Shown: positions 31,175-61,775, counted from the first letter of the stretch. The stretch is 64,000 bases of DNA from Pirellulales bacterium (GCA_035532215.1 DATKRK010000301.1:1181-65180), one strand, 5' to 3'. A program made the numbers and translations. Notes: generated by a model not told the origin, from the sequence alone.

Positions 31175-31178
31175 ACGT

Positions 31179-36726: not shown

Positions 36727-37548
36727 ATGCCTTCTGACCTTGAACAGTTGCGATCGACCCAACTTCGAGAACGGATCGATTCTGAGCGCAGTTATCATGA
36801 CGATTACTACCGAGCCCTCCAAGAGCCTCTCGCCATCCCATTCGATCTGGCAAACAGCACACAACGGCGTCCGCATAACCTGACGTGGGCTTTTTACGAC
36901 GCCATCTTGGAGCACTTCGGCCGCCAACTTAATGGTAAGCGGATCCTAGAAATCGGCTGTGGAACCGGCTCCGTGACACTAAACCTATCAAGGAACGGCG
37001 CTTATGTCGACGCATTCGACGTTAGCGAGGAAGCGGTGGCTATTTGCATGCGGCGCGCTGCTTACAATAACGAGGAGAAGGCAAAGTTCCTCGTATCGGC
37101 CATGGAGGATTTAGATCAGCCTGAGAATTACTATGATGCAGTTGTGGGGCACATGGTGCTGCATCATCTCGATATTTCAGCGGCGATGGAAAAGGTCTAT
37201 CGGTACCTCAAACCGGGCGGCTTGGGCGTTTTCGCCGAATGGAAGGAGTATGCTGTTGTTGACCGTGTGCGACGCACAGCATTGCTACAATGGCTGTTCC
37301 GACCTGGCGGCGTGACGGGGTATGCGACCGAGTACGAGCGAAAACTTTCACGTCGCGACTTTCAGGTGATTCGCCGCCGGTTCCCTAATTTGACCGTCGA
37401 ATGCCGCTACTGTCTGCGAGGAAAAGTCGAATACTTCAGCCCCAGGATCGCGGCAAAGCTCGAACGATTCGACTGTCGGCTCTTGCAACTGCTTCCATGC
37501 CTCAATCCATTCACCGACGGCGCCGTGTTGTGTGTGACAAAAGAGTAA
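36727..37548 (+). CDS. class I SAM-dependent methyltransferase
   Basis: ILEIGCGTGSVTLNLSRNGAYVDAFDVSEEAV, YDAVVGHMVLHHL, LKPGGLGVF. Spot line counts give a locally lower GC of about 48-57%. Confidence 0.85.
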   Translation: MPSDLEQLRSTQLRERIDSERSYHDDYYRALQEPLAIPFDLANSTQRRPHNLTWAFYDAILEHFGRQLNGKRILEIGCGTGSVTLNLSRNGAYVDAFDVSEEAVAICMRRAAYNNEEKAKFLVSAMEDLDQPENYYDAVVGHMVLHHLDISAAMEKVYRYLKPGGLGVFAEWKEYAVVDRVRRTALLQWLFRPGGVTGYATEYERKLSRRDFQVIRRRFPNLTVECRYCLRGKVEYFSPRIAAKLERFDCRLLQLLPCLNPFTDGAVLCVTKE

Positions 37549-37661
37549 GCATCCAGGATTAAATAACCTCCCAAACTCAAATGTCGTTGGGGTCGTAAAC
37601 CAGCCTTGCGAAAGCGGTTGCAGCGGAAGCAGTATGGGGAAGTTATTTAATCCTCGATGCT
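37548..37661. repeat. 114-bp inverted-repeat (MITE/REP-like) intercistronic element, copy 2
   Basis: Arms agcatccaggattaaataacctccc (37548-37572) and gggaagttatttaatcctcgatgct (37637-37661). It starts on the last base of the upstream TAA and ends 12 nt before the next ATG. Its interior is unrelated to copy 1. Confidence 0.8.
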
Positions 37662-37673
37662 AAAGGCCCAATC

Positions 37674-41146: not shown

Positions 41147-41259
41147 ATCCAGTTTGTCTTTTTGCGGCTGAGCGGGCGCCACCGCTGGGTTGTCGACGGT
41201 ACGCATGAGGTCATTTAATCCATCGGCTGTGTTGGTTCATCTAATTGTAGGTCGCTCGA

Positions 41260-43200: not shown

Positions 43201-43256
43201 CAGCCGTCGTCGCCCCCGCAAAACATCGAAATCCCAGGGTAAAATAGCTTTAAAAC

Positions 43257-45926: not shown

Positions 45927-45950
45927 TTGAGGCGCGCGACTGCCATCACC

Positions 45951-47117
45951 ATGACTTCGGAACCAGCGTTGGCACGGCCGCAAAGCGACGCTCCCACTCG
46001 GCGCCCGACGGTCTGCCATTTGTTGCACAGCTTGACGGTTGGCGGCGCCGAGGTTCTGGCAATGCGCTTTGCACAAGGCCTGCACAGTCGATTCCGCTTT
46101 GTGTTTGCGTGTCTGGACGAATTGGGCCCCCTGGGAGAACGGTTGCAAAGCGAGGGGTTCGCAGTATACGTGTTGGGACGACGGCCGGGACTTGACTGGC
46201 AATGTTCGCGGCGGTTGAGGGCGCTGTTGCGCCGGGAGAATGTGGAACTTATTCACTCCCACCAGTACACGCCGTTCTTTTATGCTGCGATGGCTCGCTG
46301 GCCGCTGAAAGATTGGCCAATTGTGTTCACGGAGCACGGACGGACGTTCCCCGATTACCCCAGAAGAAAACGGATCGTAGCCAACCGCCTGCTGCTCGGA
46401 AAACGCGACCGAGTCGTCGGCGTCGGCCGCGCAGTACGGGAGGCGCTGATCGCCAACGAAGGCTTGCCCGCGAAGCGGGTCGACGTGATTTACAACGGCG
46501 TCGATTTGGCGCCCTTTAGAGCAAGCGCCAAGCGTGGTCGTGCAGCGGCGCGGAAGGAGCTTCTGTGGGCTCCAGAAGAGTTCGTGGTGATCCAGGTGGC
46601 GAGGCTGGATCCGCTGAAAGATCATCTCACGGCGATACGTGTCATGGCTCGCGTGCGAGAGGCTTGTTCGCATGCGCGTTTGGTCCTGGTGGGCGAAGGA
46701 GCGGAACGCGCATCGATCGAGGCGGAAGTGAAAAGGCTGGCTTTGACGGCTCATGTGACGCTGCTCGGGCAGCGGCATGACGTTCCGAGGTTGTTGGCAG
46801 CATCTGACCTGTGCCTCTTGTCCAGCCGGAGCGAGGGGATACCGCTAACGTTGATCGAGGCCATGGCTGCCGGAGTTCCGGTCGTTGCAACGAACGTCGG
46901 GGGAGTCGGCGAGGTGATCAATGACGGCGAGACGGGATTGCTTGCGCCAAGCGGGGACGACGAGGCGTTGGCGGCTGCTGTTCTGCGCATTACGAGAGAA
47001 GCATCGTTGAGGGACCGGTTGGTGGCTGCGGCATATCTGAAGGCAAACAAAGGCTATTCCGAAGAGAAAATGCACGGCGCATATGCAAGGCTTTATGAGG
47101 AGGTGCTCGGTGAATAA
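45951..47117 (+). CDS. glycosyltransferase family 4 (GT-B)
   Basis: VCHLLHSLTVGGAEVLA and LLSSRSEGIPLTLIEAMAAGVPVVATNVGGVGEVI. The ATG at 45951 is preferred over the track TTG at 45927. Confidence 0.9.
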   Translation: MTSEPALARPQSDAPTRRPTVCHLLHSLTVGGAEVLAMRFAQGLHSRFRFVFACLDELGPLGERLQSEGFAVYVLGRRPGLDWQCSRRLRALLRRENVELIHSHQYTPFFYAAMARWPLKDWPIVFTEHGRTFPDYPRRKRIVANRLLLGKRDRVVGVGRAVREALIANEGLPAKRVDVIYNGVDLAPFRASAKRGRAAARKELLWAPEEFVVIQVARLDPLKDHLTAIRVMARVREACSHARLVLVGEGAERASIEAEVKRLALTAHVTLLGQRHDVPRLLAASDLCLLSSRSEGIPLTLIEAMAAGVPVVATNVGGVGEVINDGETGLLAPSGDDEALAAAVLRITREASLRDRLVAAAYLKANKGYSEEKMHGAYARLYEEVLGE

Positions 47118-48309
47118 CGCCGAGGGCCGGCGTTCGCCTCTGTTGGTGTTTGCCGACGACTGGGGACGGCACCCCTCGAGTTGCCAACACCTCGTGCGGG
47201 AACTACTGCCGAGGCGCGAGGTGCGCTGGGTCAATACGATCGGCATGCGCCCGCCCCGGATGGATGCCGCTACGCTACGGCGAGCCGCGCAAAAACTGCA
47301 TGATTGGACCAAGCCGCGCCGCCGGAGCGCTGCCGGAATGCCGACGGGGTTGCAAGTGTGCAATCCGCGCATGTGGCCCTGGTTTCGCAGACGCTTCGAC
47401 CGACGCTTGAACCGACGGCTGCTCGTGAGTCAACTGCGCGGCGTAATCCAAGCCTTAGCCGAGTCGCCGATCGGGGTCACCACGTTGCCGATCACGGCCG
47501 ACTTGATGGGGGCGTTGCCCGTCGTTCGCTGGGTTTACTATTGCGTCGACGATTTCAGCCAGTGGCCAGGCCTCGATCAAAAGCCGTTGGCGGAGATGGA
47601 ACGGGAGGTCGTGCAGCGCGCCGATCGCATTATTGCGGCGAGCGAAGCGCTCCGAGAGCGGATTGCAGGTTGGGGCCGAGAGTCGCACTTGTTGACGCAC
47701 GGCGTGGACCTCGAACATTGGCGCCTCGGCGACTCGCGACCGAGCGAGGCGCTCAAGGAGTTAGAACGGCCGCTCGTTTTGTTTTGGGGACTGATCGACC
47801 GACGCATTGACGTCGAATTCGTACGGCGGGCCGCCTCGGCATTAACACAGGGAACTGTTGTGCTGCTGGGTCCGGAACAGGATCCGGCCCCAGACTTGTA
47901 TCGCTCGCCGCGCGTGGCCAGAGTGCCGGCAGTCGGATACGATGAGCTGCCTGTACTGGCGCGAGAAGCGGCGGCGTTGATTATGCCTTATGCAGATCAG
48001 CCGGTCACGCGGGCAATGCAACCCTTGAAGTTGAAGGAGTATTTGGCGACAGGCAAACCGGTCGTCGCCCGCGACTTGCCCGCGGTTTGCGAATGGGCCG
48101 ACTGCCTTGATGTGGTGGCCACAGCGGACGAATTCGCCGCTGTCTTGCGACAGCGGCTCGATGGGTTGTTGCCCGAAAGCCAAATGCTGGCCCGAAGGCG
48201 GTTGGCCGAGGAAAGTTGGGCGGCTAAAGCTCAACGCTTCGAAGAAGTGCTCACTGGAAGCGACGAGGGGGCGATTGCGGTTGCTGCGCCGCGAGGGAAC
48301 GCCCAGTGA
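47083..48309 (+). CDS. glycosyltransferase, GT-B fold (TuaH-like)
   Basis: LLVFADDWGRHPSSCQHLVREL and the C-terminal QPLKLKEYLATGKPVVARDLP. The start is uncertain (ATG 47083 or 47095, GTG 47110). Confidence 0.65.
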   Translation: MQGFMRRCSVNNAEGRRSPLLVFADDWGRHPSSCQHLVRELLPRREVRWVNTIGMRPPRMDAATLRRAAQKLHDWTKPRRRSAAGMPTGLQVCNPRMWPWFRRRFDRRLNRRLLVSQLRGVIQALAESPIGVTTLPITADLMGALPVVRWVYYCVDDFSQWPGLDQKPLAEMEREVVQRADRIIAASEALRERIAGWGRESHLLTHGVDLEHWRLGDSRPSEALKELERPLVLFWGLIDRRIDVEFVRRAASALTQGTVVLLGPEQDPAPDLYRSPRVARVPAVGYDELPVLAREAAALIMPYADQPVTRAMQPLKLKEYLATGKPVVARDLPAVCEWADCLDVVATADEFAAVLRQRLDGLLPESQMLARRRLAEESWAAKAQRFEEVLTGSDEGAIAVAAPRGNAQ

Positions 48310-48402
48310 GCGCCTCGCACCGAGTAGCGTGCTCCGAAAACGGTCCTGCAGGAAGCGTGCCCGTGGTCGCCGCCGTGACGGACGGCCAAGAGACTGACAG
48401 AC

Positions 48403-49524
48403 GTGGGGTTGTCCTCCATGCGCGCGTGGTTACTAAATCGGGTGGGGGGGCCCGACAAGACAATCCTGAATTCTCCAAGGTTCTTGGAGCCATACGGCTA
48501 TCGTGCCATCTGCGCTTATATGCATCCGCCCGGCGACCCGGGATTCGATACGCTGCGCGGGCGGGCTGTTGCCCTGGGCGCTCGCTTGGAAAGCATTCCT
48601 GACAGGCAGGCGCTCGACTGGCGCGTGTTGCGCGAAATGCTGCGATTGTGCCGGCGCGAGCGAGTGGCGATCTGGCACGGGCACGACTACAAGAGTAACC
48701 TGCTGGGGATTTTGCTGGCTCACTTTTGGCCCATGCGGCTGATCACGACCGCTCACGGCTGGGTGGAGCAAACGGCGCGCACGCCATTTTACTATGCCGT
48801 CGATCGCTGGGCGCTGCGGCGTTACGAGCGCGTGATTTGCGTTTCGGAGGACTTGTTCCAGCAGTGCATGGAGGCGGGCGTGCCCCGCTCCGCCTGCCGA
48901 TTAATCGAAAACGCCATTGATACCGAGCAATTCAGTCGAACGGCGGATCGCGATGAGGCCAAGCGTCGGCTGGGATTCACGCTGGGACGAATATTGATTG
49001 GCGCCGTCGGGCGCCTTTCCGGCGAGAAAGGTTTCGATCGACTGATTGCAGCAGTCGACCGTTTGCTGAATGAGGGGCTCGACCTTGAACTGTGCATTGT
49101 CGGCGAAGGCGGCGAGCGAGGCAACCTGGAGCGACTGATTGCGAAGCTCAGGCGGCAGGATCGCATTCGCTTGGCGGGGTTTCAGTCCGACACGCTCGAA
49201 TGGTACCACGCGATGGACGTGTATGCCCTGAGCAGCCTGCGCGAAGGGCTTCCCAACGTGCTGCTGGAGGCGATGGCGCTCAAAGTGCCCGTAGTAGCGA
49301 CGCGCGTAGCTGGCGTGCCCAAGTTGGTACGCGATGGCGAGAATGGCCTACTTGCAGAAGCGGACGATGTCGAGGGACTGTGCCGAGCGTTGCGAACGCT
49401 TGCGAGCGAAGGGGCGCTACGATTACGACTGGGCGAGGCGGGCCGGGCTACGGTGGAAAAAAGCTACAGCTTCGCGGTCCGCATGGAAAAGATTCGGTCG
49501 ATTTACGACGAACTGCTGGGCTGA
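48403..49524 (+). CDS. glycosyltransferase family 4; the N-terminus is apparently displaced by a frameshift in a G7 run (intact reading would start near 48306-48375)
   Basis: ALSSLREGLPNVLLEAMALKVPVVATRVAGVPKLV. Frame 0 upstream encodes ...GVVLHARVVTKSGGG, which aligns with paralog 39920 (INVVHLRSSRGTGGGPDKTLL) and joins PDKTILNS only if one G of 48444-48450 is removed. Confidence 0.85.
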   Translation: MGLSSMRAWLLNRVGGPDKTILNSPRFLEPYGYRAICAYMHPPGDPGFDTLRGRAVALGARLESIPDRQALDWRVLREMLRLCRRERVAIWHGHDYKSNLLGILLAHFWPMRLITTAHGWVEQTARTPFYYAVDRWALRRYERVICVSEDLFQQCMEAGVPRSACRLIENAIDTEQFSRTADRDEAKRRLGFTLGRILIGAVGRLSGEKGFDRLIAAVDRLLNEGLDLELCIVGEGGERGNLERLIAKLRRQDRIRLAGFQSDTLEWYHAMDVYALSSLREGLPNVLLEAMALKVPVVATRVAGVPKLVRDGENGLLAEADDVEGLCRALRTLASEGALRLRLGEAGRATVEKSYSFAVRMEKIRSIYDELLG

Positions 49525-49528
49525 GCAC

Positions 49529-50515
49529 ATGTACTTCACTGTAACTGTTGATACCGAGGAGGAGTGGGACTGGGGGGACGGCTGGCCTACCAGTCGGCCG
49601 CAGGTTACAAACATTCAGGCGTTGCCCAGGTTCCAGCAGCTTTGCGCGCGATACGGCGCGAGGCCGACTTACTTCGTCAACCTCGCAGTGCTCGAGGATC
49701 CGAAGGCCTGCGCGGTGATCCTTGACTTGGCGTCGCGCGACGACTGCGAAATCGGGATGCACATTCACCCGTGGAACACTCCGCCTATCTTGGATCATCG
49801 GCCCGCCACCGCCCGCGACACGTTTCTTCACAACCTGCGAGAGGACCTGATCACTGCAAAGCTGACCAGCGTCTACAACCGGTTTCTTGAACTCGGCTTG
49901 CGACCGACAAGCTTCCGCGGAGGCCGCTATTCAAGCGGCGGCCAGGTTACCCAGTTCTTGCAAGATCATGGCTTCAAGGTGGATGCCTCGGTACTGCCCA
50001 TGACCACCTGGCCTGACGACGGGGCTCCGGATTATCGGCGGCGAGACCTGCTGCCTCGACGTCTTGCGCCGTCGCGCGAGGGCGAACTGCCGCTTTGGGA
50101 AATTCCCTTAACCTTGGGCTTTACGCGTAAGCCGCTAGCATTCTGGCGCCGGTGGTACGAGGCCATCGAAGCGAGTTGGCTGAGCAAACTGCGCTTGATT
50201 GGAATCGGAGAGCGATTGGGCATCGTTCGTCGCGTCTGGCTGAACTTCGAGTCCCCACTGGGGGAACACATGCTGAAGTTCCTTCCGCTGCTCCGGAAAA
50301 TGCAAGTGCCCTGCGCATGCTTCACGGTCCACAGCTCGTCGCTGGTGGCGGGGCCGGGACCGTACACCCGCACGTCGCAAGACGAAGATCGGATCTTCCG
50401 ACAAATAACTGGCGCCTTTCAATGGGTCGCCACTAACGCGGATTTCATTCCTACGACTATGACCGACCTAGCCCATCAACTGGAGGGCGAATACCATGCG
50501 TGTACTAGGAATTAG
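49529..50515 (+). CDS. polysaccharide-deacetylase-like protein (WalW/WbmS-type)
   Basis: MYFTVTVDTEEEWDWGDGW...ARPTYFVNLAVLEDP...EIGMHIHPWNTPP. The start was moved to ATG 49529, just after the upstream stop. Confidence 0.6.
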   Translation: MYFTVTVDTEEEWDWGDGWPTSRPQVTNIQALPRFQQLCARYGARPTYFVNLAVLEDPKACAVILDLASRDDCEIGMHIHPWNTPPILDHRPATARDTFLHNLREDLITAKLTSVYNRFLELGLRPTSFRGGRYSSGGQVTQFLQDHGFKVDASVLPMTTWPDDGAPDYRRRDLLPRRLAPSREGELPLWEIPLTLGFTRKPLAFWRRWYEAIEASWLSKLRLIGIGERLGIVRRVWLNFESPLGEHMLKFLPLLRKMQVPCACFTVHSSSLVAGPGPYTRTSQDEDRIFRQITGAFQWVATNADFIPTTMTDLAHQLEGEYHACTRN

Positions 50516-52370
50516 CCCTTTGGATAAAGACTCGACGGCCTCCTTCCTGGAAGACGGACGCGTCGTGTTCGCCTGCGCCGAAGAACGACTCTCGAGAGTC
50601 AAGCTGCAGGACGGATTCCCGCATCGTGCCGTTCGATTGGGACTGGAACGCACCGGGTGGGATCCGGCATCCATCGATGTCGTGGCCTACGCGTTCTTCG
50701 ACGGCGACGAGGAGGCCAGGCTGATCGGGGCGGCGGTGACACTTGACGGCGAAAGGCACTCGCCAACTGCGACCAGCTCATCGTTGAAGAGACTAAGAGA
50801 AGCCCGACAGGGCTATCGAATGGACCGCAGCATGCGCGTGCATGGCATCGAAAGCGAACGAGACGAGTTTGTGCCTCCAAAGCCATTGGCCAAGCGCATG
50901 GTCTATGAGCTGCTGTCAAGGCTTCCGCGACTTGATCACTGGGCCCACCGGCGCTTATTGCGAACATGGGAGCGTGAAGCGGCCGCTGATCATCGGTTGC
51001 GAACGCAGCAACTCGAAGCGGGATTGGCAGAGTACGGCCTGACAGGCAAGCTGCGTCGCTTCCAGCATCACGACACACATGCTGCTAACTCGTTCTTCGC
51101 CTCGGGCTACGACGAGGCATTGCTGGTCACCTTCGACGGCTACGGTTCAGGTAAATGCGGCGGAATCTACGTCGGCGATAGCAGCGGCATCCGCCTACTG
51201 CACCGGTTCGACTTTCCCAATTCGCTCGGCAATTTCTACGAGCATGTGACCAGCGGTCTGGGATTCCGCGCCGGACGGCACGAGGGCAAAATCGTCGGGC
51301 TGGCCGCGTACGGCAACCCCGACATTCTGAAGCCGGCCCTTTTGGAGCGATTCGATTGCCGTGACGGCGACATCGTGATGAAAGGAAGCCAGAACTACTT
51401 CTTTACGCGGGCCCTCGCGCAGCATTTTGCCAAGCGCGACGTGGCCGCCGCTTATCAGCGAGTCCTAGAGGAGGTCGGGGCCAAAGCGGTCGCCTATTGG
51501 CTCAAGCAGACGGGTATAAGAAACGTAGCAGTTTCCGGCGGCGTCCACGCGAATGTGAAGTTCAACCAGCGGATTCGGGAGGTCGATGGGGTGGAGTCGG
51601 TATTCGTCTATCCAAACATGGGAGATGGCGGTTGCGGAACAGGCGCCGCGATGCTCGCATTTGAACCATCGAGCTTCCGCCAGCGGCCGGTAGCCAACGT
51701 ATACCACGGTCCCGACTACTCGGAGGATGAAATCGCGGCCGAGTTGAACAAGAGCGGCCTAGCGTTCGATCGTTCGGACACCATTGAAGTGCAGGTGGCT
51801 CGCTTGCTGGACGACAACCGGATTGTGGGGCGGTTCGAGGGTCGCATGGAGTACGGGCCGCGAGCCTTGGGCAACCGTTCGATTCTCTATCCCGCGGGCG
51901 ATCCCGAGGTCAATCAATGGCTTAACCATCAACTGGGACGCACGGAGTTCATGCCTTTTGCGCCAGCGGTGCTGCAGAGCGAGGCGCATCGTCTGTTCAA
52001 GAACCTCGAGGGGTGCGAAAAGACGGCTGAATTCATGACAATTACCTTTGATTGCACCGACGAAATGATTCGCATGTGTCCCGCCGCCGTCCACGTCGAC
52101 GGCACGGCCCGGCCACAGCTCGTCAGCGAGCGCACAAATCCGAGCTTTCATCGAATTCTTTGCAGCTACTATGAGTTGACCGGAATACCCGCCGTCATCA
52201 ACACGAGTTTCAACATGCACGAAGAACCCATCGTCTGCTCGCCGGCGGATGCCGTACGCGCCTTTTTGCAAGGCAGACTCGACTATCTCGCCATCGGTCC
52301 GTTTCTCGTTCCACATCCGCGGTTGAGCGACATCGAGCGAGAGCGAGAAAGCCTTGCCGTCAAGGCGTAG
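50496..52370 (+). CDS. carbamoyltransferase (NodU/CmcH family)
   Basis: MRVLGISPLDKDSTASFLEDGRVVFACAEERLSRVK is the Carbam_trans N-domain pattern, and FMPFAPAVL...NTSFNMHEEPIVCSP is the C-domain pattern. Confidence 0.9.
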   Translation: MRVLGISPLDKDSTASFLEDGRVVFACAEERLSRVKLQDGFPHRAVRLGLERTGWDPASIDVVAYAFFDGDEEARLIGAAVTLDGERHSPTATSSSLKRLREARQGYRMDRSMRVHGIESERDEFVPPKPLAKRMVYELLSRLPRLDHWAHRRLLRTWEREAAADHRLRTQQLEAGLAEYGLTGKLRRFQHHDTHAANSFFASGYDEALLVTFDGYGSGKCGGIYVGDSSGIRLLHRFDFPNSLGNFYEHVTSGLGFRAGRHEGKIVGLAAYGNPDILKPALLERFDCRDGDIVMKGSQNYFFTRALAQHFAKRDVAAAYQRVLEEVGAKAVAYWLKQTGIRNVAVSGGVHANVKFNQRIREVDGVESVFVYPNMGDGGCGTGAAMLAFEPSSFRQRPVANVYHGPDYSEDEIAAELNKSGLAFDRSDTIEVQVARLLDDNRIVGRFEGRMEYGPRALGNRSILYPAGDPEVNQWLNHQLGRTEFMPFAPAVLQSEAHRLFKNLEGCEKTAEFMTITFDCTDEMIRMCPAAVHVDGTARPQLVSERTNPSFHRILCSYYELTGIPAVINTSFNMHEEPIVCSPADAVRAFLQGRLDYLAIGPFLVPHPRLSDIERERESLAVKA

Positions 52371-52388
52371 AAGTACGTTTGGATCTCG

Positions 52389-52478
52389 ATGAAAGGCAAG
52401 AAGCACAACGCGGAACAGATCGTCAAGAATCTCTACGAAGCGGACGCGACGCTTGCTGACGGCAAGACGATCGGCTAG
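52389..52478 (+). pseudogene. remnant of an IS3-family transposase OrfA N-terminus
   Basis: The 29-codon ORF MKGKKHNAEQIVKNLYEADATLADGKTIG* resembles IS3/IS911 OrfA N-termini (xxFSxEQIvxiLrEaexxxaxGktv); VCQ follows in frame after the stop. No intact transposase or inverted repeats are seen. Confidence 0.45.
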
Positions 52479-52496
52479 GTCTGCCAAACTTCATCT

Positions 52497-52823
52497 ATGA
52501 GTCAACGTCCCACCACGTTCGGGCAACTGCTCCGACGTCTTGTATCGCCTCGCGCCGCTGCTTCCCAGAATCATGGACCTTTGATCGCCACGGCGACGGA
52601 GGTCGCCGCGCCGTCTGACGCAGACAAATCGCCGCTGTGGGTGATCCTGCACAGCATCACTGATTCAGACGTGCGGCTGATTCACCCCCGTCCCGTGGCC
52701 GCGAGCGAATTGGCGATACAGATCCAGGGGGATAGCGGAGAGATCCTCCGCGTCACGCTGGCGATGGCCGGATCGCAGAAAATGGGCGAGTTATACGAAT
52801 CGACAGCCCAATTTCTACAGTAG
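52497..52823 (+). CDS. hypothetical small protein
   Basis: 108-aa ORF in the same frame as the IS remnant, with reasonable codon bias and no recognised motif. Confidence 0.35.
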   Translation: MSQRPTTFGQLLRRLVSPRAAASQNHGPLIATATEVAAPSDADKSPLWVILHSITDSDVRLIHPRPVAASELAIQIQGDSGEILRVTLAMAGSQKMGELYESTAQFLQ

Positions 52824-52971
52824 AATAATACGGCAAATACAAGCCGCTGGCCGCGTTGGCGGGCGTTTGTTGCTCGCGATCGTCACTTCATTGCAGTGCG
52901 GCGAACCCCAGGCCGGGCGTTGGATGGCCAAGACGCTGCTATCCAAAGTCCCTGATCCAATTGATATCCTG

Positions 52972-53565
52972 ATGCAAATCGTACCGACTGAACTCGAAGG
53001 CGTGGTGATCGTCGAGCCAAAAGTCTTCGCCGACCCACGCGGCCTCTTCTTGGAAACCTGGAACGCCGAGCGCTACGCCGAAGCGGGCCTGCCCGCCGCG
53101 ATGGTCCAGGATAACTTGTCCAGCTCCGCGCGGGGCGTGCTGCGCGGCCTGCATTATCAGTCCCCCGAACCGCAAGGAAAGCTTGTCTACGTCCTCGCCG
53201 GCGCCGTGCTCGACGTGGCGGTTGACATTCGCTTCGGCTCGCCGACGTTCGGCCGCTGGACGGGCGTGGAACTATCCGCGGACAACCATCGCCAGCTCTT
53301 CGTTCCCGCGGGTTTTGCTCACGGTTTCTGTGCGACCAGCGAGCAGGCGCTGGTGGCCTACAAGTGTACGCACCCCTATCGCCCGCAGTACGACCGAGGC
53401 GTCGCCTGGAACGACCCCGAAATCGGCATTCGCTGGCCGACGGGCGCTCCGCTCCTTTCGGAAAAAGACTCCCGGGCGCCGTGGCTTTCGGACATCCCCG
53501 CCGAGTTGTTGCCGCGCTGGACGCCGGCCGAAACCGCCCGCCTCGGCTGTAAAGAGCAGGCATGA
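52972..53565 (+). CDS. rfbC: dTDP-4-dehydrorhamnose 3,5-epimerase
   Basis: MQIVPTELEGVVIVEPKVFADPRGLFLETW...LRGLHYQ...KLVYVLAGAVLDVAVDIR...FVPAGFAHGF. The start was moved to ATG 52972 to match the family N-terminus. Confidence 0.9.
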   Translation: MQIVPTELEGVVIVEPKVFADPRGLFLETWNAERYAEAGLPAAMVQDNLSSSARGVLRGLHYQSPEPQGKLVYVLAGAVLDVAVDIRFGSPTFGRWTGVELSADNHRQLFVPAGFAHGFCATSEQALVAYKCTHPYRPQYDRGVAWNDPEIGIRWPTGAPLLSEKDSRAPWLSDIPAELLPRWTPAETARLGCKEQA

Positions 53566-54626
53566 TCTTGTCGGCCTCCCAACGCATGGAAATCGAAGTC
53601 AGCGACGCCGCGCCCGCGGAGGACCAGATCCTTCGGCTATGCCGCTTGCCCGAGACTGCCGAGCTGCCGCCCAGCCGATTGCCCGCCTGGCCGGCGGTGT
53701 TGCGCGACGGACTGGGCCATCAGCCCTATTGGCTCACGGCGCGAGAAAATGGGCGCGTGGCGGGCGTTTTGCCGCTGTCGTTCGTTCACAGCCGGTTGTT
53801 CGGCCGCTTTCTCGTCAGCCTGCCCTATTTGAACTCGGCGGGCGTCGCGGCGACGAACGAGCAGGCTGCTACGATGCTCGTCGATCGGGCGGTGTCGCTG
53901 GCCGACGAATTGGACGTCCGCTACCTGGAACTACGCCAAGAACGGCGAATCGAGCACCCGGCGCTCGGCAGCGAAACCGCGAGCAAGGTCCACATGCGGC
54001 TGGCGCTGCCTGACTCGGCCGATTCGCTTTGGAATCAGCTCAAAGCCAAGGTGCGCAATCAGGTCCGCAAAGGCCGCGAGCCGGGCTTCGCCGTCGCTTG
54101 GGGAGGCGCGGAACGGCTCGACGAGTTTTACGCCGTTTTCAGCCGCAACATGCGCGACCTGGGCACGCCGGTCTACGGGCGCGGACTGTTTGCGGCGATC
54201 GTCAAACATTGCCCAGACGCGGCGGAGTTTTGCATCGTTTCGCACGACCAAAAGCCGATCGCCGCGGCGTTACTCGTGCATGGCGGCGGCATCACCGAAG
54301 TGCCCAGCGCCAGTTCGCTGCGCGAGTACAATTCGGCCAACGCCAACATGCTGATGTACTGGCATTTGCTAGAGCGGGCCATCGAGCGCGGCCAGAGCGT
54401 GTTCGATTTCGGCCGCAGCACGGTCGATGGCAACACGTATCGCTTCAAAAAGCAGTGGGGCGCCGAGCCCCATCCCGCCATTTGGCAATATTACGTGCGC
54501 CGCGGCGCCGTCGGCGACATGCGGCCCGAAAGCGCCCGCTACCAGCGCATGATCCGCCTCTGGCAGCGGCTGCCGGTGTGTGCCACGCGCTGGCTCGGCC
54601 CGGTGATCGTGCGCGGGATTCCGTAG
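53562..54626 (+). CDS. FemAB-related (GNAT-fold) protein, PEP-CTERM-system-associated type
   Basis: Size and the C-terminal FDFGRSTVDGNTYRFKKQWGAEP pattern. Its ATGA overlaps the rfbC stop. Confidence 0.8.
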   Translation: MILSASQRMEIEVSDAAPAEDQILRLCRLPETAELPPSRLPAWPAVLRDGLGHQPYWLTARENGRVAGVLPLSFVHSRLFGRFLVSLPYLNSAGVAATNEQAATMLVDRAVSLADELDVRYLELRQERRIEHPALGSETASKVHMRLALPDSADSLWNQLKAKVRNQVRKGREPGFAVAWGGAERLDEFYAVFSRNMRDLGTPVYGRGLFAAIVKHCPDAAEFCIVSHDQKPIAAALLVHGGGITEVPSASSLREYNSANANMLMYWHLLERAIERGQSVFDFGRSTVDGNTYRFKKQWGAEPHPAIWQYYVRRGAVGDMRPESARYQRMIRLWQRLPVCATRWLGPVIVRGIP

Positions 54627-55192: not shown

Positions 55193-58100
55193 ATGAACTT
55201 TCATAAGCGCCTGAACCCCGCAACGGATCGCAGGGATGCGCCAGGGGACGTCTGCGGGCGTCGTCGCGCGCTGGCGGCGCAGGCCCTTTCGCTCGCGCTC
55301 GTGCTGCTGGCCGCGACCGGTTGCAATCCCCCGCCGAACGCCGGCCCGCGGTTTCTGCGGCAGATTGAGTGGGTCGGTCGCGGCACGTGGCTCAAGGCCG
55401 ATACGCACGTGCATACGCAGTTTTCCGACGGGGCCCATACCGTCTCGGAAGTCGCCGCCAAGGCCTCGGAGTTCGGCTGCGATGTGCTGGCGATCACCGA
55501 CCATGCCGATCGCGAATTGGGCGCCGGCACGCATGAGTATATCGAGGCCATCGCCGCGGCCCGCCGCGAGTTTACCGAACTGACGATTCTGGCCGGCATC
55601 GAGTGGAACATCCCGCCTTGGGGCGGCGACGAACACGCCGTGGTGCTGTTGCCGCCCGGCGATCGCGAAGGGCAATTGCTGGCCGAGTTCAAGGCGCGGT
55701 TCGACGACCTGGGGCGCGAGGAACACGACCCTGCGCTGGCCGACGAAGGGCTCGAATGGCTGGCTGGTCAGGCGGCGGAGGGCGTCGGCCCCGTAGCGAT
55801 TTACGAGCACCCCGGCCGCAAGCGACCGCGCGCCGGGCAGGTCCTCGGCGAATTGCGGCGTTGGCGGGCCGTGAACGACGTGATGGTCGGCTTTTCCGGT
55901 GCACCGGGGCATCAGGCCATGCAGCCCTTGGGCGCGTATCGCGGGACGCTCAAGCCGGTCGATCGCTGGGACCCGGCGGCGGCCAGCGTAGGCGACGCCT
56001 GGGACCGCTTGCTCCAGCAGGGCATCGATGTCTGGGCCGCGTATGCGCCGTCTGATTTTCACGACGACCGCGGCGACGGCTTGGGCGATTATTGGCCGGG
56101 CGAGTTTTCCGAGACTTGGCTTTACGCCCCCGAGCGCTCGGCGGCCGGCGCCCTGCAAGCGCTGCGGGCCGGAACGTTCTTCGGCGTACACGGCCACATC
56201 GCCCGCGACGTGGAGTTGCGCGTTGAAGCCACCGGCTTGCCTCGCGCCGCGGTTGCAGGCGAAGCGATCGAAGCGGCGCCGGGAACCGAGTTGACCGTCG
56301 AACTATCAATGCTGACCGCCGACGTCGATTGGCAGGGCCGGCCCAGCCGCATCGACGAGATCGAGCTGATCGGCATCACGCCGAGCGGCGCGAAAACGCT
56401 GGCCAGTTGCCCGCCTGACGCTGGCGGCCGTACGCGATTGATAACCATCGATACGCCAGCCGACGGAATCGTACTCAGAGCCCGCGGCCGGCGGATCGTC
56501 GAAGACGGCCCCGATTTGATGTTCTATACCAACCCAATCCGCGTGACGACGACCGCAGGCTCGAATCGGCGTCTCGATCGATTCGCCGCTTCCGGCGTCA
56601 ATCGATTCGCGGCGAGCGCCGCCGCCCGGCCAGCGCCGCAGGGCGATTCGCCGTCGGCGCGCAGCGCCAATCGGTCGCTGTTGCAGTTCTTGTTTCGACC
56701 GGTGGCGCTAGTCAACGTGGGCGGCTTAGCGATCGGCGGCGCAGTGCTGCTCTTGTTGGGAGGGACGCGGCGCAGCGCGCGCGGCGCTCCCGCGAATCGC
56801 CCGGCTTCGGGCGCAATCGATTCCGGCGCGCCAGCTCCTGCGCGGACGACGGTCGCCGCCCCGCGACCCGGCCACTTCTTCTTCGCCTGGCTGGGCTTCG
56901 CGGCGTTCGCGGTTTACGGATCGTGGGTGCCGCTCAATTTTCGGCCCTTGCCGTGGGCGGAAGCCGTGACTCGCTTTCGAGCGATACCTTTCTTGCACCT
57001 GTCGATCGGATCCCGCGCCGACTGGGTTGCGAATATTCTACTGTTCGTGCCGATCGGCTTTTGCGGCTTGGGCGCGTGCGTCTGCGATCGCCGCGGTCGG
57101 CTGTTGAAAATGGGCGCGACCCTGGCCGTGATTGGCCTTTGCGTGGCGCTGAGCGTATCCGTCGAATTCAGCCAGCTCTGGTTTCCCGGGCGAACGGTCT
57201 CGCAGAACGATATCGTGGCGGAAACGATGGGCGGCACGGCCGGAGCCGCGTTATGGCTGTTCGTCGGCGAGCGGTTAACCGCCTGGCTTCGCTCGTTCGC
57301 CGTCCGCAAGGACAGCGGGCGGCAGTTTGATTGGCTGCTGCAAGCGTATCTGCTGGGGCTCGTTCTGTATTCGTTGTTCCCCCTTGACCTGACGATCAGT
57401 CCGGCCGAACTCTGGCATAAATACCGCGAGGGCAAGTTCCGCCTGCTTCCGTTCGCCGACGTGCAGTTTACCGTCGAAGGCTGCTTCGCGCTGGCCAGCG
57501 ACGTCCTGCTGTTCCTGCCGGTCGGCATGCTGGCCCCGACCGCCTTTCGCAGTCCTGACCGCCCGGTCCGTTCGCTCTTCCGAAGCCTTATCGCCGGCTT
57601 GGCAGTGGCGGGGGGGATTGAACTCGCCCAGACGTTCGTCTATAGCCGTTACGTCGACGTGACGGAGTTGATTACAGCCGCAATCGGCATCGCAGCGGGC
57701 GCCGCCTGGCGGCGAAGACGGCTCGCGCGGCCGGGCGATTCGCCGTTGTCCCGGACGAGCCGAAGGTGGTTGTGCGCCGTGCATCTGCTGGCATTTGTCG
57801 CCTATGCGGCGTTTTTGGCCGCGTTTTTCGTGCTGCCGTTCGATTTCATCGAAGATGCCGCGCGAATTGAGCCCCGCTGGCAGAATTTCTTCGGCGTCCC
57901 GTTGAGTAGTTTATATTTCAGCACGGAATACAACGCCCTGACACAAGTCTTGCGCAAAGGGCTGCTGTTTGCGCCGCTGGGTTATCTCGCCGTTCGCATC
58001 ACCGCCTTGGGGCGCCTGGGCGGCTGGGCGCGGATGGCGGCGCTGGCGTTGTGTTTGGGCGCGGCTTTCGCTTTGGCGTTTGGCATCGAGTACGCCCAGA

Positions 58101-58993
58101 TCTGGCGCGACGACACGACGGCCAACTTTACGGACGTGCTGCTTTGCACCTTCGGCGCCGCCGCGGCGCTGGCCTTGACGCTGCGCGTCGAAAACGCGTC
58201 GCAGCACGCCCCTAGGCGGTCTTCGTCGACCGCGCCCGAGCCAGCAGCGACGAATCGCGGGCTGGCCCGGCTCCCCCTTGCCAGCGCCGGCTGGATACTA
58301 ATGGCAGGGGGCGTGCTGCTGGTCGGCTCCGGGCTGAGCGCCGCGTGGGGCGGCGCCAATTGGCAAGGAGTTGGCCGCCCTGCGAGCGAGGCGGATACGG
58401 CGTCCCCTGGATCGTATACTTCGCCCTCGTCCGATCCGAACCTGGTCTTCACGCGTCTGCCCGCCGAACCTCATCGCGCGCCGGAACTGACGGCGATTGA
58501 ATTGCCGACGTTTGCGGGAGCCTATGCGATCTGGGGCGCCAGCGGGCGCGACGATCGCGGGCATATCTGGCTGGGCGTCAGCGCGGCGGGCGTGGAGCAG
58601 CCTTCGGCCCATCTCATGGAACTGGATCCTGACAGCGGCGCCGTGTTCGATCGCGGCGACGCGCTGGACCAACTGCGCCGGGCCGGCCTGCTGCGGCCGG
58701 GCGAGGGGCAGATGAAAATCCATTCCAAGATCGTCCAGGCAGCCGATGGCACGCTCTATTTCGCCTCGATGGACGAACAGGGGGAAAGCGACTCGGCCCG
58801 ACGTCTGCCACGCTGGGGTTCGCACTGCTGGCGGCTGCGCCCCGGCGACGAAACTTGGGAGCACCTGTTCGCGGCGCCCGAGGGCCTGATCGCCGTCGCC
58901 GAAGCAGGAACGCAGGTCTACGCCTTGGGATATTTCGACCATGTGCTCTATCAAACCAGATCCGGGTTCGTCGTCGATTGGGCGATGACCTGA
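55193..58993 (+). CDS. 1266-aa fusion: signal/lipobox + PHP-family phosphoesterase domain + three VanZ-like membrane modules + C-terminal beta-propeller-like domain
   Basis: LVLLAATGC (lipobox-like). PHP motifs DTHVHTQFSDG and LAITDHA. VanZ-like motifs occur three times (LLFVPIGF...EFSQLWFPGRTVSQNDIVAETMGGTAGA; LLFLPVGM...ELAQTFVYSRYVDVTELITAAIGIAAGA; LLFAPLGY...EYAQIWRDDTTANFTDVLLCTFGAAAA). The C-terminus reads DGTLYFASMDEQ...QVYALGYFDHVLYQ. Confidence 0.8.
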   Translation: MNFHKRLNPATDRRDAPGDVCGRRRALAAQALSLALVLLAATGCNPPPNAGPRFLRQIEWVGRGTWLKADTHVHTQFSDGAHTVSEVAAKASEFGCDVLAITDHADRELGAGTHEYIEAIAAARREFTELTILAGIEWNIPPWGGDEHAVVLLPPGDREGQLLAEFKARFDDLGREEHDPALADEGLEWLAGQAAEGVGPVAIYEHPGRKRPRAGQVLGELRRWRAVNDVMVGFSGAPGHQAMQPLGAYRGTLKPVDRWDPAAASVGDAWDRLLQQGIDVWAAYAPSDFHDDRGDGLGDYWPGEFSETWLYAPERSAAGALQALRAGTFFGVHGHIARDVELRVEATGLPRAAVAGEAIEAAPGTELTVELSMLTADVDWQGRPSRIDEIELIGITPSGAKTLASCPPDAGGRTRLITIDTPADGIVLRARGRRIVEDGPDLMFYTNPIRVTTTAGSNRRLDRFAASGVNRFAASAAARPAPQGDSPSARSANRSLLQFLFRPVALVNVGGLAIGGAVLLLLGGTRRSARGAPANRPASGAIDSGAPAPARTTVAAPRPGHFFFAWLGFAAFAVYGSWVPLNFRPLPWAEAVTRFRAIPFLHLSIGSRADWVANILLFVPIGFCGLGACVCDRRGRLLKMGATLAVIGLCVALSVSVEFSQLWFPGRTVSQNDIVAETMGGTAGAALWLFVGERLTAWLRSFAVRKDSGRQFDWLLQAYLLGLVLYSLFPLDLTISPAELWHKYREGKFRLLPFADVQFTVEGCFALASDVLLFLPVGMLAPTAFRSPDRPVRSLFRSLIAGLAVAGGIELAQTFVYSRYVDVTELITAAIGIAAGAAWRRRRLARPGDSPLSRTSRRWLCAVHLLAFVAYAAFLAAFFVLPFDFIEDAARIEPRWQNFFGVPLSSLYFSTEYNALTQVLRKGLLFAPLGYLAVRITALGRLGGWARMAALALCLGAAFALAFGIEYAQIWRDDTTANFTDVLLCTFGAAAALALTLRVENASQHAPRRSSSTAPEPAATNRGLARLPLASAGWILMAGGVLLVGSGLSAAWGGANWQGVGRPASEADTASPGSYTSPSSDPNLVFTRLPAEPHRAPELTAIELPTFAGAYAIWGASGRDDRGHIWLGVSAAGVEQPSAHLMELDPDSGAVFDRGDALDQLRRAGLLRPGEGQMKIHSKIVQAADGTLYFASMDEQGESDSARRLPRWGSHCWRLRPGDETWEHLFAAPEGLIAVAEAGTQVYALGYFDHVLYQTRSGFVVDWAMT

Positions 58994-60912
58994 ATCGGAT
59001 AGGTCCCGCCTTGCGTGCCAGACGCCGGAGTGACGGTCACTTTTCCAGTATGGTCGATCGTCACTGTCCAACCCGGCGGCGCGTTGGCCGTCAGGTTGTA
59101 TGTGTCGGCGAAACTGGTTTGGACGTTGGCGTCGAACGAGACCGGCGTATTCTGGTCCGTCGAAAGCGCAGCGGGGCTTGGCGCCACCGTCAGCAAGTTG
59201 GCCACATTGCCGTTGAGCGTCACGGCGTCCGTGCCATCGCCATTGGCCGAAACATCGATCGTGCCGTCATAGCCGGTCAACGTCGTTTCGTTAGCGGTGT
59301 CGAGGGGCGCTCCGCCCACGCTCAAATTGCCGGTCCCCGGCCCAAGCTGAACCGTGCCGCCGCTGGCCGTAATCGAAACTGAGCCGGCGAAATTGGGCGA
59401 CGTCGTCAGTCCGCTGCCCGAGAGCGAGGCCGAATTGGTTGCGATCGTATACGTGCCCGCGGGCAGCGGTTGGCCGTTGAGCGTCAGCGCTCCGTCGGGT
59501 ACGGTCAGCGATATCGATAGGTTTCCAGTGGCGGTCGCGGAATAACTTTCCCAATTGCCGCTGGCGCCGACGTTAGATTCGGCCGGACCGTAGAACGACA
59601 AGCTGCCGCTGCCATTGATCGCGTACGAGCCGTTTCCAACTATCAATACGGCAGAGGCTGCCGTGGTCGAAACTGCAACTTCGCCTGTACCTAGATTTGC
59701 GCCCCCCAGGGCCCGCCAACGCGGCAGCAGACGCGTGGAGCGAGGATGCAAGAAAACCGGCGGCTACGTCGCTCGCCCAGGATGCTGTGATTTGGCCCGC
59801 AGCCACTGCGCGAGGCGCTGACAGGGCGCCGCGGACTTGGCCGGCCGCCTGAGTCGGACTGAGTCCAGTTTTCCTACCGGCCGAATTCGGAGGCGTATTC
59901 GGAAAGGGAACGTTCAGACCTGTTGTCATCGTCGCCAATGGCGGGTCGATAGGCAACCGCGGAGCAACAAACGCGTCGAAGCCGGCATTCAGGACTGTGG
60001 AGATGATGCCGGCGATTAAAATCTCCTCGATAAAGAATCCGACCAGAGCCCCAAACAAGAGACCCTCCACGATGCCTTTGGCAATGTCTACGTTTGTCGG
60101 CCCTCCCTTGGCGGCGGTGGATAGTTGAGTGAAGACAACGCCCGTGCCGTAGATGGCGACATAGAGCGCAATGCCTTGATATTCGCCGCTCTGGCTCTCG
60201 GCAATTGTTTCCCCAGTGACGGGATTGAAGTCGAACCAAGCGACCGTGGGCGTCCCGTCGACCTGAACCGACTTTGTCGGGACGACCACGGTCAGACCGC
60301 TCTGGATCGCTGCCGTGATTCGGGCGGTGGCGTCGGGCGTGCTGGCCAACAGCGCGGGAGCGATCGCCGTCGAGCGCAGCGTGGCGGGCGCGGTCGTCCA
60401 AAAACCATGCCTGCGTCGAGCGTGCCGTAGGCCGCAGCCCCCGTGTCGAGCGTCGTGGGAATTGGATCGGCGAGGGACACCGTGAGCGTCACGCTCGCGC
60501 GATCGTATGGCTGGATCGTCCCCAAGCTCCAGGCCAACTGCTGGCCGTTCTGGTCGGGCAGTTGCGACGCGCTGGAAAATGTCACGCGCGAAGCGAGCGT
60601 ATCCGTCAAGAGTACGCCCGTAATTGGATTCGCCGCCTGGTTGTAGACCGTGAGCGTGAGCGTCTTCTGGTGATTCTGCACGTCGGGGACGTCATAGGCC
60701 GAAAGGGTGCGGCCGACGACGATCGTCGGCGGGGCGGCGCCGCCGATATCGAGCATCAGCCGCGGTTCCAGCGGTTGAAACAGGGAAGTTCGCATCTCGA
60801 GCGAGCCGAAAAGCGCTTCGCGTCGCCTTCGCCTTGCCGCCGGCGATCCGCTCCCGAAACGCCCCCACGCATTACGTCGCCCCCGGAATCTTCTCATGAA
60901 GCGCCATGACAT
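58951..60912 (-). pseudogene. secreted surface/adhesin-like protein gene interrupted by two compensating frameshifts and apparently lacking its 3' end
   Basis: Three consecutive minus-strand ORFs (60292-61170, 59573-60349, 58951-59751) read as one protein: MSWRFMRRFRGRR...LEPRLMLD signal-like N-terminus, a DUF11-like repeat (TLTLTVYNQAANPITGVLLTDTL...), then Gly/Thr/Asn-rich beta-strand repeats. The frame changes occur at the A5 run 60400-60404 and the C6 run 59702-59707. Confidence 0.7.
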
Positions 60913-61775
60913 CGTTCTCCGTACAGGCTCTCGCAGCCGATGACCGTAACCGCAAACAGATGCACCCCACATTCGTCCTCTGTCAAATTGACGCGAAACC
61001 AAGCCATCCATGACCTCCCTGCCAACGCCTCGCCATCCTCCTCGACGGCGACAGAATAGCCTTGTACAACAAATTGAAAAGCAGCGGAACACTTCATTCA
61101 TCGCCGCGAGGGGTATAAAGTCGCCTGCACATGATGCTCGAATGGCGTTCGCGGAGGGCCGGCGGCGCATTCAAGCGCGGCGAGCGCGGCCGCCGCGTCC
61201 AAGCCGGGCGCATGACCTCCGCCGAATCTCTTGAAGCGGCCCCCGAGGATCGCGCGCTGGCGGTCGAGTGCGAACCGCTGTCTAGCGCGTGGGACTATTG
61301 CGGCGGGATGAGAGCCGCCGCCAGGCGAACGTCGCGACGCGGCAGACGCCGCTGGGCATCAAGTCGCCTTTTTTTCGCTTGGCTGCGGATGGCGGTTTCC
61401 GCTTCGCCGGGCAGAGAACGCTTTGGATCGACTCGCCGCGCACGTGGCTGCGTCGGCGCGGGCCTGGTTCGGATCGTCAGCCGGAAAGGCTCCCTGCGCA
61501 ATTCGAAGGCGCCGGCCGCGAGCCGCCGGGTCGCCCGCCCGGCGGCTCGATGGTTCAATGACACCAAGTTGCCAAAGAGCGACGCATCCGAAGTTAGGCT
61601 CGGGGATATCGAAGCCGCTGGGAGCGGCAGGCCCTCCGCCCGCCGCCCCGAGCCGAGACCGGCGACGGCGGCCCCCGCGCGGGCTCCGTGCGCAGGATGC
61701 GCCTTGGCCCGTGGCACATCCGCCCCAGGCGATCGCGTGCTGCACGACGCAGGACATGCGCCGCGACGAGGCCGA

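Follow-up and report, generated by a model that had tools for sequence, protein, structure and literature searches.

A PHP domain, three VanZ-type lipocone units and a truncated β-propeller joined in one conserved planctomycete membrane protein

We analysed a gene near the end of a 64,000-nucleotide stretch of DNA from a Pirellulales bacterium (GCA_035532215.1, DATKRK010000301.1:1181-65180; the window, with positions counted from its first letter). The gene is an open reading frame (ORF) of 1266 amino acids (aa) on the plus strand at 55193..58993 and encodes a real, conserved planctomycete membrane protein, in which an exported PHP domain with an appended β-sandwich precedes three VanZ units and part of a β-propeller. 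It is a genuine, conserved and uncharacterised member within the VanZ-1/lipocone family. What was observed comprises the domains, catalytic-type residues that are conserved, indicators of the topology, the locus context with its synteny and a recurrent coupling of PHP to lipocone domains. Our tentative proposal is that the protein could be an inner-membrane, periplasm-facing phosphoesterase acting in two steps on polyprenyl-pyrophosphate-linked glycans. For the window itself, the gene had been read correctly but is truncated at its 3' end; its value lies in the coupling of PHP, lipocone and propeller domains and in the prediction of a two-step removal of head groups.

The called ORF matches exactly the coordinates given in a preliminary description of the window, made from the sequence alone, which had envisaged that the ORF might be an assembly-level fusion of separate genes. 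This was ruled out: the same 1266-aa ORF with the same neighbours was recovered in three independently assembled samples (JGI 3300031672, SRR8554485 and SRR8554483), and the fusion recurs in relatives, where ~30 clusters formed at 50% identity carry it, mostly from Planctomycetota, as do many metagenome-assembled genomes (MAGs). Relative to the closest relative, the ratio of nonsynonymous to synonymous substitution rates (dN/dS) is 0.12 for the PHP domain with the β-sandwich, 0.22 for the VanZ array and 0.16 for the retained propeller fragment. With values of 0.12-0.22 on all retained domains, selection was counted in favour of the proposed activity.

The protein starts with a leader in which a positively charged n-region is followed by a hydrophobic core and the candidate lipobox LLAATG-C44, as judged from sequence and hydropathy. 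The signal or lipobox-like N-terminus of the preliminary description is present, and Cys44 is kept in at least 90% of 56 relatives. Export by the Tat pathway was dismissed because the RRR of the leader is not conserved among relatives. The PHP barrel that follows matches the Pfam model (PF02811) over residues 70-146 with 45.3 bits (cutoff 26.4), and all nine PHP metal ligands are present (H72, H74, D79, H104, E137, H206, H240, D288 and H290). Conservation was measured in an alignment of 64 relatives, 35-80% identical to the protein, in columns holding 62-64 residues; each ligand is conserved at 94-98% (58-63 of 62-64 sequences). The profile match and the intact ligands bear out the earlier PHP assignment, and the motifs quoted for it all occur in the ORF: DTHVHTQFSDG (70-80), AITDHA (100-105) and EWNIPPWGGDEH (137-148).

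In AlphaFold2 (AF2) models, the per-residue confidence (pLDDT) is above 90 across the barrel, which is modelled as a distorted (βα)7 fold, and the adjoining immunoglobulin (Ig)-like domain forms all-β strands of high pLDDT at model residues 293-408; a Pfam scan of this β-sandwich gave no match. Foldseek searches with the ectodomain returned, with probability 1.00, BVU_3505 (3e38) and TM0559 (2anu) as the nearest structures, then Cv1693 (2yb1) and RNase AM/TrpH (9etk, 7ug9). These structures share the distorted barrel and the trinuclear metal site at an identity of only 14-22%, and 3e38, the best match in the PDB, is a two-domain protein that also has the appended β-sandwich. The PHP domain is predicted to be a metal-dependent phosphoesterase of the trinuclear-metal type. 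3e38 and 2anu are functionally uncharacterised, and Cv1693 and RNase AM are cytoplasmic nucleotide or RNA phosphoesterases, whereas the present domain is exported.

Among NCBIfam profiles the domain weakly matches generic PHP enzymes (PolX, TrpH-like proteins and RNase RNM). Together with the Foldseek neighbours, these matches assign it, in line with the earlier view, to the general TrpH/TM0559/PolX type and not to the CpsB/Wzh type. CpsB/Wzh shares with the present protein a PHP fold and a polysaccharide locus with a BY-kinase-like gene, but CpsB is a cytoplasmic protein of ~250 aa, whereas here PHP is exported and carries a β-sandwich. As no CpsB-type model matched the domain at E <= 1 in Pfam or NCBIfam and the domain lies behind a signal peptide, a CpsB-type phosphatase partner of the BY-kinase was rejected, as it had been in the preliminary description. 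The NCBIfam model CehA/McbA (NF038032) reached 70.0 bits, below its cutoff of 80, over residues 66-449 and profile positions 2-312 of 315, and a standalone PHP homologue (P0091) scores 80.0 on it. A role as carbamate hydrolase was set aside, since the match is below the cutoff and a carbamoyltransferase recurs in the locus of only one of 39 relatives; the presence in the window of both an O-carbamoyltransferase gene (50496-52367) and this sub-threshold match (55349-56548) is probably a coincidence.

The whole protein matched the Pfam VanZ model (PF04892, cutoff 30.1 bits) in three stretches with 119 bits in total. Scanned singly, units 1, 2 and 3 scored 56.1, 48.5 and 41.8 bits, so that the triple assignment holds for each unit alone, and the motifs on which it had been based are found once per unit (LLFVPIG 616-622, LLFLPVG 772-778 and LLFAPLG 924-930; EFSQ 658-661, ELAQ 810-813 and EYAQ 966-969). 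AF2 modelled three repeats of four long helices (H1 to H4) with a short linker or 'handle' helix between H1 and H2. The ExxQ motif of H3 is present in all units (E658/Q661, E810/Q813 and E966/Q969), each at a conservation of at least 97%. By sequence, unit 1 is the most canonical and best conserved of the three: R608, D610, N614 and P620 in H2, E658 and Q661 in H3, and R667, S670, N672 and D673 in H4 are kept in 84-98% of relatives (N672 84%, R608 88%, the others 95-98%). Unit 2 carries D770 in H2, R819 and E825, the last of which is Asp in 70% of the relatives, and unit 3 carries R921-K922 in H2 and T980-D981 in H4. At the position of the H2 Asn, N614 is found in 63/64 sequences, D770 in 42/64 and K922 in 51/62; the acidic residue of H4 is D/E in 50/63 sequences at position 825 and in 61/62 at D981. 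The H4 motifs read SxNDxxxE, DxTExxxA and NxTDxxxC in units 1 to 3, with the central acidic residue alone kept. The H4 motif of VanZ-1, DxDDxxxN, occurs in its literal form in none of the three units, and the histidine of the VanZ-2 H2 motif RKxxH (VanZ H87, YfiM H31) is likewise found in none of them, unit 3 reading R921-K922-G-L-L.

The AF2 model (residues 45-1060, from an alignment of 56 sequences) has a mean pLDDT of 85.7 and a predicted template-modelling score (pTM) of 0.66. It orders the chain as PHP barrel, β-sandwich, disordered linker, a transmembrane (TM) helix termed TM0, a loop that is disordered and rich in Arg, three repeats of four helices with a handle, and a final TM helix (model residues 985-1009). 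Disordered linkers of low complexity lie on both sides of TM0 (aa 464-502 and 525-558); the low-complexity linker noticed earlier corresponds to stretches with pLDDT <50 (residues 464-505 and 525-545). Lys and Arg number 23 in the predicted cytoplasmic loops and 12 in the periplasmic loops, of equal total length, and standalone PHP homologues have N-terminal leaders of their own. Because of the charged n-region with its lipobox, this 23:12 bias and the leaders of the standalone homologues, the PHP domain, the polar residues of the VanZ units and the C-terminal domain are placed on the periplasmic side. The export of PHP assumed in the preliminary description is thus supported by the signal and lipobox, the conservation of Cys44 and the charge bias of the loops. 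In this topology the conserved polar residues of the VanZ units (N/D/K in H2, ExxQ in H3 and Asp/Glu in H4) would lie at the outer-leaflet side of the membrane.

VanZ has been placed in the lipocone superfamily of 4-helix enzymes, for which the phosphate-linked head groups of phospholipids and polyisoprenoid carriers are the predicted targets (Burroughs, Nicastro & Aravind 2025, PMC12419801). That work ties VanZ-1 to genes for exopolysaccharides other than peptidoglycan and to fusions with WaaL; it proposes that the lipid carrier is where cleavage or transfer takes place, and predicts that VanZ-1 cuts head groups off lipid carriers. A preprint of September 2026 (bioRxiv 10.64898/2026.09.16.752124) describes yeast Llp1, VanZ and E. 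coli YfiM as Ca2+-dependent lipid-linked-oligosaccharide (LLO) pyrophosphatases that release phosphorylated oligosaccharide, with essential residues in H2 (K/H), H3 (E) and H4 (D). The statement in the preliminary description that VanZ proteins are mechanistically obscure is therefore outdated, and its suggestion that the protein acts on lipid-linked or phospho-linked envelope intermediates agrees with the work published since.

The array of the present protein resembles VanZ-1 lipocones in its 4-helix TM core, in the handle helix of the H1-H2 linker, in the Asn of H2 (unit 1) and in the ExxQ of H3 (all units). Both are associated with non-peptidoglycan exopolysaccharide genes and with Wzy_C/WaaL fusions; tandem arrays are common among them, and PHP is a rare listed partner. 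They differ in H4, which is DxDDxxxN in VanZ-1 and SxNDxxx(E/Q) here, and in that the array sits between an exported PHP domain with β-sandwich and a β-propeller, a combination that is undiscussed in the text of PMC12419801. Downstream copies of such arrays carry the label 'VanZ-i' (inactive) in that paper, whereas units 2 and 3 keep ExxQ and the acidic H4 residue, so that inactivity is not evident. With Llp1, VanZ and YfiM (Li et al. 2025, cited in bioRxiv 10.64898/2026.09.16.752124), the protein shares the superfamily fold, and its H3 Glu and H4 Asp fall at the positions of the catalytic E128 and D143/D147. The published LLO pyrophosphatases are single-domain proteins with an essential H2 His (RKxxH) and no PHP partner, whereas the present units are without that His. 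By analogy with these enzymes, a membrane enzyme acting on polyprenyl-pyrophosphate glycans would be the best functional model.

The coupling of PHP to lipocones recurs in many genomes. A word-indexed search found ~70 clusters at 90% identity that combine PHP and VanZ, and an exhaustive HMMER search over 50%-identity representatives returned 1123 proteins at E <= 1e-30. Among the best 150 of these 1123 representatives, ~30 have the fusion, >100 are standalone proteins of ~450 aa with all three VanZ units (37-48% identity) and several are standalone PHP and β-sandwich proteins of ~450 aa. In about half of the family with PHP and three VanZ units (PHP–VanZ3), the propeller is naturally missing (~950-aa forms). 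In species-representative genomes the full fusion was found in Planctomycetota MAGs (Pirellulales, Planctomycetaceae and a Kuenenia MAG) and in one Acidobacteriota MAG, and PHP with the β-sandwich alone also in Acidobacteriota, Gemmatimonadota, Calditrichia, Poribacteria and Glaciecola.

The order and the partners of the domains vary. VanZ comes first and PHP last in a gammaproteobacterial protein (P0080), Wzy_C is joined to PHP in P0065 and lies between PHP and VanZ in P0069, and P0013 reads PHP–VanZ3–metallopeptidase–ClaspCone-like. ClaspCone-1 precedes PHP in a Vibrio protein (P0073) and in Glaciecola loci (L043-46), where it was told by the motif GGSGF…DLAAD. One locus (L030) has separate PHP and triple-VanZ genes ~9 kb apart. 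In the lipocone paper ClaspCone-1 is fused to PHP and Ig domains next to SGNH lipase and MBOAT genes; P0073 and L043-46 have the same PHP and β-sandwich subfamily (37-43% identity), and SGNH/GDSL hydrolase genes and the same β-propeller domain adjoin in these loci. ClaspCone-1 is a soluble periplasmic lipocone, in contrast to the membrane VanZ units of the present protein.

A gene with the propeller domain lies directly beside the PHP gene in L024, L027, L034, L043, L044 and L046, also in Acidobacteriota and Glaciecola, and in locus L007 a propeller-less PHP–VanZ3 gene is directly followed by a gene for an SGNH/GDSL hydrolase (13532-15682), the C-terminal half of which is 47% identical to the propeller domain (E 6e-102). 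By sequence comparison, PHP with its β-sandwich and the propeller are thus a conserved pair across phyla, fused through VanZ3, or with the propeller fused to an SGNH hydrolase; this pairing does not appear to have been described in the literature checked. What is new in these comparisons is that, across phyla, the same PHP and β-sandwich module is paired with VanZ, the β-propeller and ClaspCone-1 lipocones.

The architecture had been presented as undescribed, which is true in part. The main text of PMC12419801 mentions PHP once only, in the context of YfiM-1, and does not discuss a PHP–VanZ fusion. In its network source data, however, PHP does stand next to VanZ-1, on the N-terminal (6) or the C-terminal (4) side; PHP(+Ig) is listed together with ClaspCone-1 and around YfiM-1, and so are the arrays VanZ-1→VanZ-i (834) and VanZ-i→VanZ-i (406). 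Standalone triple-VanZ proteins are abundant. The parts of the protein and their combination are already catalogued, and it is not a categorically new system. When the literature was searched for PHP enzymes that are exported and act on undecaprenyl substrates, only the lipocone paper was returned. The annotations of relatives go no further than 'VanZ family protein', 'glycopeptide antibiotics resistance protein' and 'PHP domain-containing protein', and the resistance labels are probably misleading, especially for the standalone triple-VanZ proteins of Gram-negative exopolysaccharide (EPS) loci.

The gene closes a ~47-kb locus with Bac_transf, Wzy_C, GT-C and exosortase genes, which places it, as reported before, after a polyprenyl-phosphate-based glycan pathway. 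The locus is of the exosortase (EpsH)/PEP-CTERM type. It encodes an EpsH exosortase, a BY-kinase-like protein, a 1462-aa TPR protein, a Bac_transf initiating transferase, a PMT_2-like GT-C and Wzy_C, and further a Wzt ABC ATPase, GT9, several GT4s, AsnB, a PcRGLX-like protein of 889 aa, a carbamoyltransferase, RmlC and a FemAB-like acyltransferase. Relatives (28-49% identity) likewise close glycan loci, and clusters with the fusion are usually found at the 3' end of such loci; the genes that accompany these relatives are GT4, AsnB, UbiA, PMT_2, Wzy_C, Bac_transf, FemAB-like and PcRGLX-like genes.

Combined, these observations can tentatively be read as follows. The lipoprotein-type signal would export PHP and the β-sandwich, TM0 would bring the chain back to the cytoplasm, three 4-helix units of the VanZ-1 type would come next and the last TM helix would export the β-propeller. 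The lipocone units, with unit 1 as the likeliest catalyst among them, would take up the flipped polyprenyl-pyrophosphate glycan from the outer leaflet, as the product of the adjacent exosortase/Wzy-type EPS locus, and cut its pyrophosphate head group to give polyprenyl-phosphate and glycan-1-phosphate. The trinuclear site of the tethered PHP domain would then hydrolyse the remaining phosphomonoester, taking the phosphate off the glycan, or off polyprenyl-pyrophosphate if cleavage takes place on the sugar side. The net result would be a glycan taken off its carrier and a regenerated polyprenyl-phosphate, either as a dedicated termination step or as salvage of stalled intermediates, and in intact relatives the propeller would probably bind the glycan or an SGNH partner. 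What we infer here is the substrate, which bond is cut, the order of the steps and how labour is divided between the domains. The strongest argument, of the Rosetta-stone type, is that one PHP subfamily is found repeatedly, and irrespective of order, fused or adjacent to three different lipocone families and to Wzy_C: a conserved covalent fusion in either domain order, also with Wzy_C or another lipocone family, is strong genomic evidence for two chemistries that would follow each other on one substrate.

Several points weigh against this proposal. The downstream copies of such arrays are labelled inactive in PMC12419801. The nearest characterised PHP relatives, as identified from the model, act on nucleotides or RNA and not on sugar phosphates. 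The motif DxDDxxxN and the mutated His of RKxxH are in no unit, so that activity of any unit would be an extrapolation from the characterised enzymes. A gap of 566 bp (54627-55192), unusually long and non-coding, parts the gene from the upstream glycan locus; no σ70-like promoter was matched in a scan of this gap, which holds one weak terminator-like hairpin (54925-54939). Finally, 60% of the propeller is gone from this copy, and its function may be impaired.

It is possible, if unlikely, that the lipocone units are instead a transferase or ligase that moves a glycan or glycan-phosphate from polyprenyl-pyrophosphate to a glycan, a lipid or an exosortase-sorted PEP-CTERM protein, with PHP trimming a phosphodiester or polyprenyl-pyrophosphate. 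The lipocone paper proposes VanZ families as possibly the missing terminal exopolysaccharide transferases, by analogy with PTDSS1/2, and the exosortase type of the locus and direct fusions to Wzy_C/WaaL-type domains (P0065, P0069 and 118 cases of VanZ-i→WaaL-ligase in the source data) would fit such a role. However, hydrolysis is the sole reported biochemistry for VanZ-type lipocones, no acceptor-binding element was identified and the window already has a separate Wzy_C protein (23718-25016).

The C-terminal region bears on whether the gene is functional in this genome. The soluble blade-like repeats of the preliminary description are indeed part of a β-propeller, but only the first ~153 of ~370 propeller residues are kept, and the rearrangement junction at which the domain is cut had been missed. 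Homology to full-length relatives ends at base 58954 (…GYFDHVLYQ), beyond which close relatives run for ~215-230 residues, and the ORF continues with 12 unrelated codons (TRSGFVVDWAMT) and a stop. A frameshift hiding the rest of the domain was ruled out, as tblastn with the C-termini of full-length relatives found nothing past 58954, whichever frame of the window was read. For the relative P0006, AF2 modelled the complete domain as all-β with a pTM of 0.84, and this model gave 739 propeller matches at E <= 1e-3, of 6-7-bladed types; by sequence, a PDB search gave no match and Pfam gave sub-threshold Reg_prop matches only. The retained ~3 blades cannot close into a ring.

A convergent, fragmented gene on the minus strand has its stop codon (58951-58953) exactly at the breakpoint. 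It consists of three ORFs (58951-59751, 59573-60349 and 60292-61170), the most upstream of which has a planctomycete-type 'LEPRxMLD' leader and a CLIPPER/DUF11 match, and its fragmentation in three frames is repeated in the three independent assemblies. As the same ORF and neighbours occur in these assemblies, the junction belongs to the genome and is no one-off chimera. It is read most economically as a deletion that joined the PHP-VanZ gene and the convergent gene tail to tail, and the latter looks like a decayed large adhesin-like gene that lost its 3' end in the same deletion. A search for an insertion sequence or repeat at the junction found none, with short inverted repeats at chance level only. 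A DDE transposase gene (L001 21658-22392) lies ~8 kb downstream of the junction on a longer contig and may relate to rearrangements.

It is conceivable, but doubtful, that the gene is a decaying remnant here, in which the loss of 60% of the propeller and the convergent 3' end have inactivated or destabilised the protein. The breakpoint with its foreign tail, the neighbour split in three frames, the nearby transposase and a partial propeller unable to close would all be expected from decay. Against decay, 1254 homologous codons run uninterrupted with every conserved catalytic-type residue intact, propeller-less forms make up about half of the family, dN/dS remains at 0.12-0.22 with the fragment included, and the truncated allele is present in three samples. 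Least probable of all is that the PHP ectodomain would be the sole enzyme, acting on a non-lipid substrate (phospho-substituents of the secreted polysaccharide or, by comparison with RNase AM and Cv1693, nucleotides or RNA in the extracellular space), with the VanZ array as a dead anchor, sensor or lipid-binding scaffold: the 'VanZ-i' labels in PMC12419801, the departure of H4 from the VanZ-1 consensus in all three units, the nucleotide and RNA phosphoesterases nearest to PHP and the existence of standalone exported PHP and β-sandwich proteins without VanZ would agree with it, but intramembrane polar residues that are 90-100% conserved in all three units among sequences 35-80% identical, with a dN/dS of 0.22, point to more than an anchor, and the coupling of the same PHP module to VanZ-1, ClaspCone-1 and YfiM-1 neighbourhoods would be difficult to account for if lipocone chemistry played no part.

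The two-step hydrolysis proposed above predicts that the product is free glycan and not glycan-1-phosphate. The way in which many secreted polysaccharides come off undecaprenyl-pyrophosphate, and in which the scarce carrier lipid is regained, is poorly understood, and a pyrophosphatase activity has been assigned to VanZ-type lipocones only just now. The fusion also nominates a partner function for a large group of uncharacterised exported PHP and β-sandwich proteins. More speculatively, and with little expectation that all of it holds, PHP–VanZ3(–propeller) proteins might be the missing dedicated release enzyme of exosortase/Wzy-type EPS pathways, with the lipocone taking the polymer off polyprenyl-pyrophosphate, PHP dephosphorylating its reducing end and the propeller holding it; the combination of PHP and β-sandwich with three lipocone families would then represent a general two-enzyme logic for the removal of head groups from carrier lipids.

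Table 1. Coordinates of the PHP–VanZ gene, its parts and its neighbours in the window.
Feature	Position	Strand	Evidence
Exosortase-type EPS locus, ~47 kb, upstream of the gene	8176..54626	+	Pfam scans
Predicted signal peptide with candidate lipobox, aa 1-44 (…LLAATGC44)	55193..55324	+	Sequence, hydropathy, Cys conservation
PHP phosphoesterase barrel (predicted), aa ~53-334	55349..56194	+	Pfam, ligands, AF2, Foldseek
β-sandwich (Ig-like), aa ~337-452, packed behind the PHP barrel	56201..56548	+	AF2, 3e38 match
TM0 helix, aa 503-524, outside to inside	56699..56764	+	Hydropathy, AF2 helix
VanZ unit 1, aa 559-704, 4 TM helices and 'handle' helix	56867..57304	+	Pfam 56.1 bits, conservation, AF2
VanZ unit 2, aa 708-845	57314..57727	+	Pfam 48.5 bits, conservation
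VanZ unit 3, aa 854-1004	57752..58204	+	Pfam 41.8 bits, conservation
Last TM helix, aa 1029-1053, inside to outside, chain back to periplasm	58277..58351	+	Hydropathy, AF2 helix
N-terminal ~40% (about 3 blades) of β-propeller	58478..58954	+	Relatives' alignment, tblastn, AF2, dN/dS
Foreign tail, 12 unrelated codons and stop, past junction 58954/58955	58955..58993	+	tblastn, alignment, same ORF end in 3 samples
Convergent adhesin-like gene (CLIPPER/DUF11), split into three ORFs that overlap in different frames	58951..61170	-	ORF calls, 3 assemblies

Some further features were seen in relatives. Variants of the standalone triple-VanZ proteins (P0094-P0207) are fused to an OafA/YrhL acyltransferase (P0111, 1340 aa). 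Immediately upstream of the PHP–VanZ3 gene there is often a small gene for a single VanZ unit of 130-165 aa (L004 8500-8895, L008 8333-8830 and 12492-12884, L015, L031 and L040), and in L004 and L008 an unannotated gene of 284-358 aa stands between the two. Neither of these genes is present in the window, nor is a second VanZ, PHP, SGNH or propeller gene found elsewhere in it. A trio of HAD phosphatase, UbiA prenyltransferase and PMT_2 GT-C genes occurs in L004 (1847-4867) and at the start of L008; it is like that of polyprenyl-phosphoribose/arabinose donor pathways and suggests, by analogy, that polyprenyl-monophosphate sugars may also be made in the loci of relatives.

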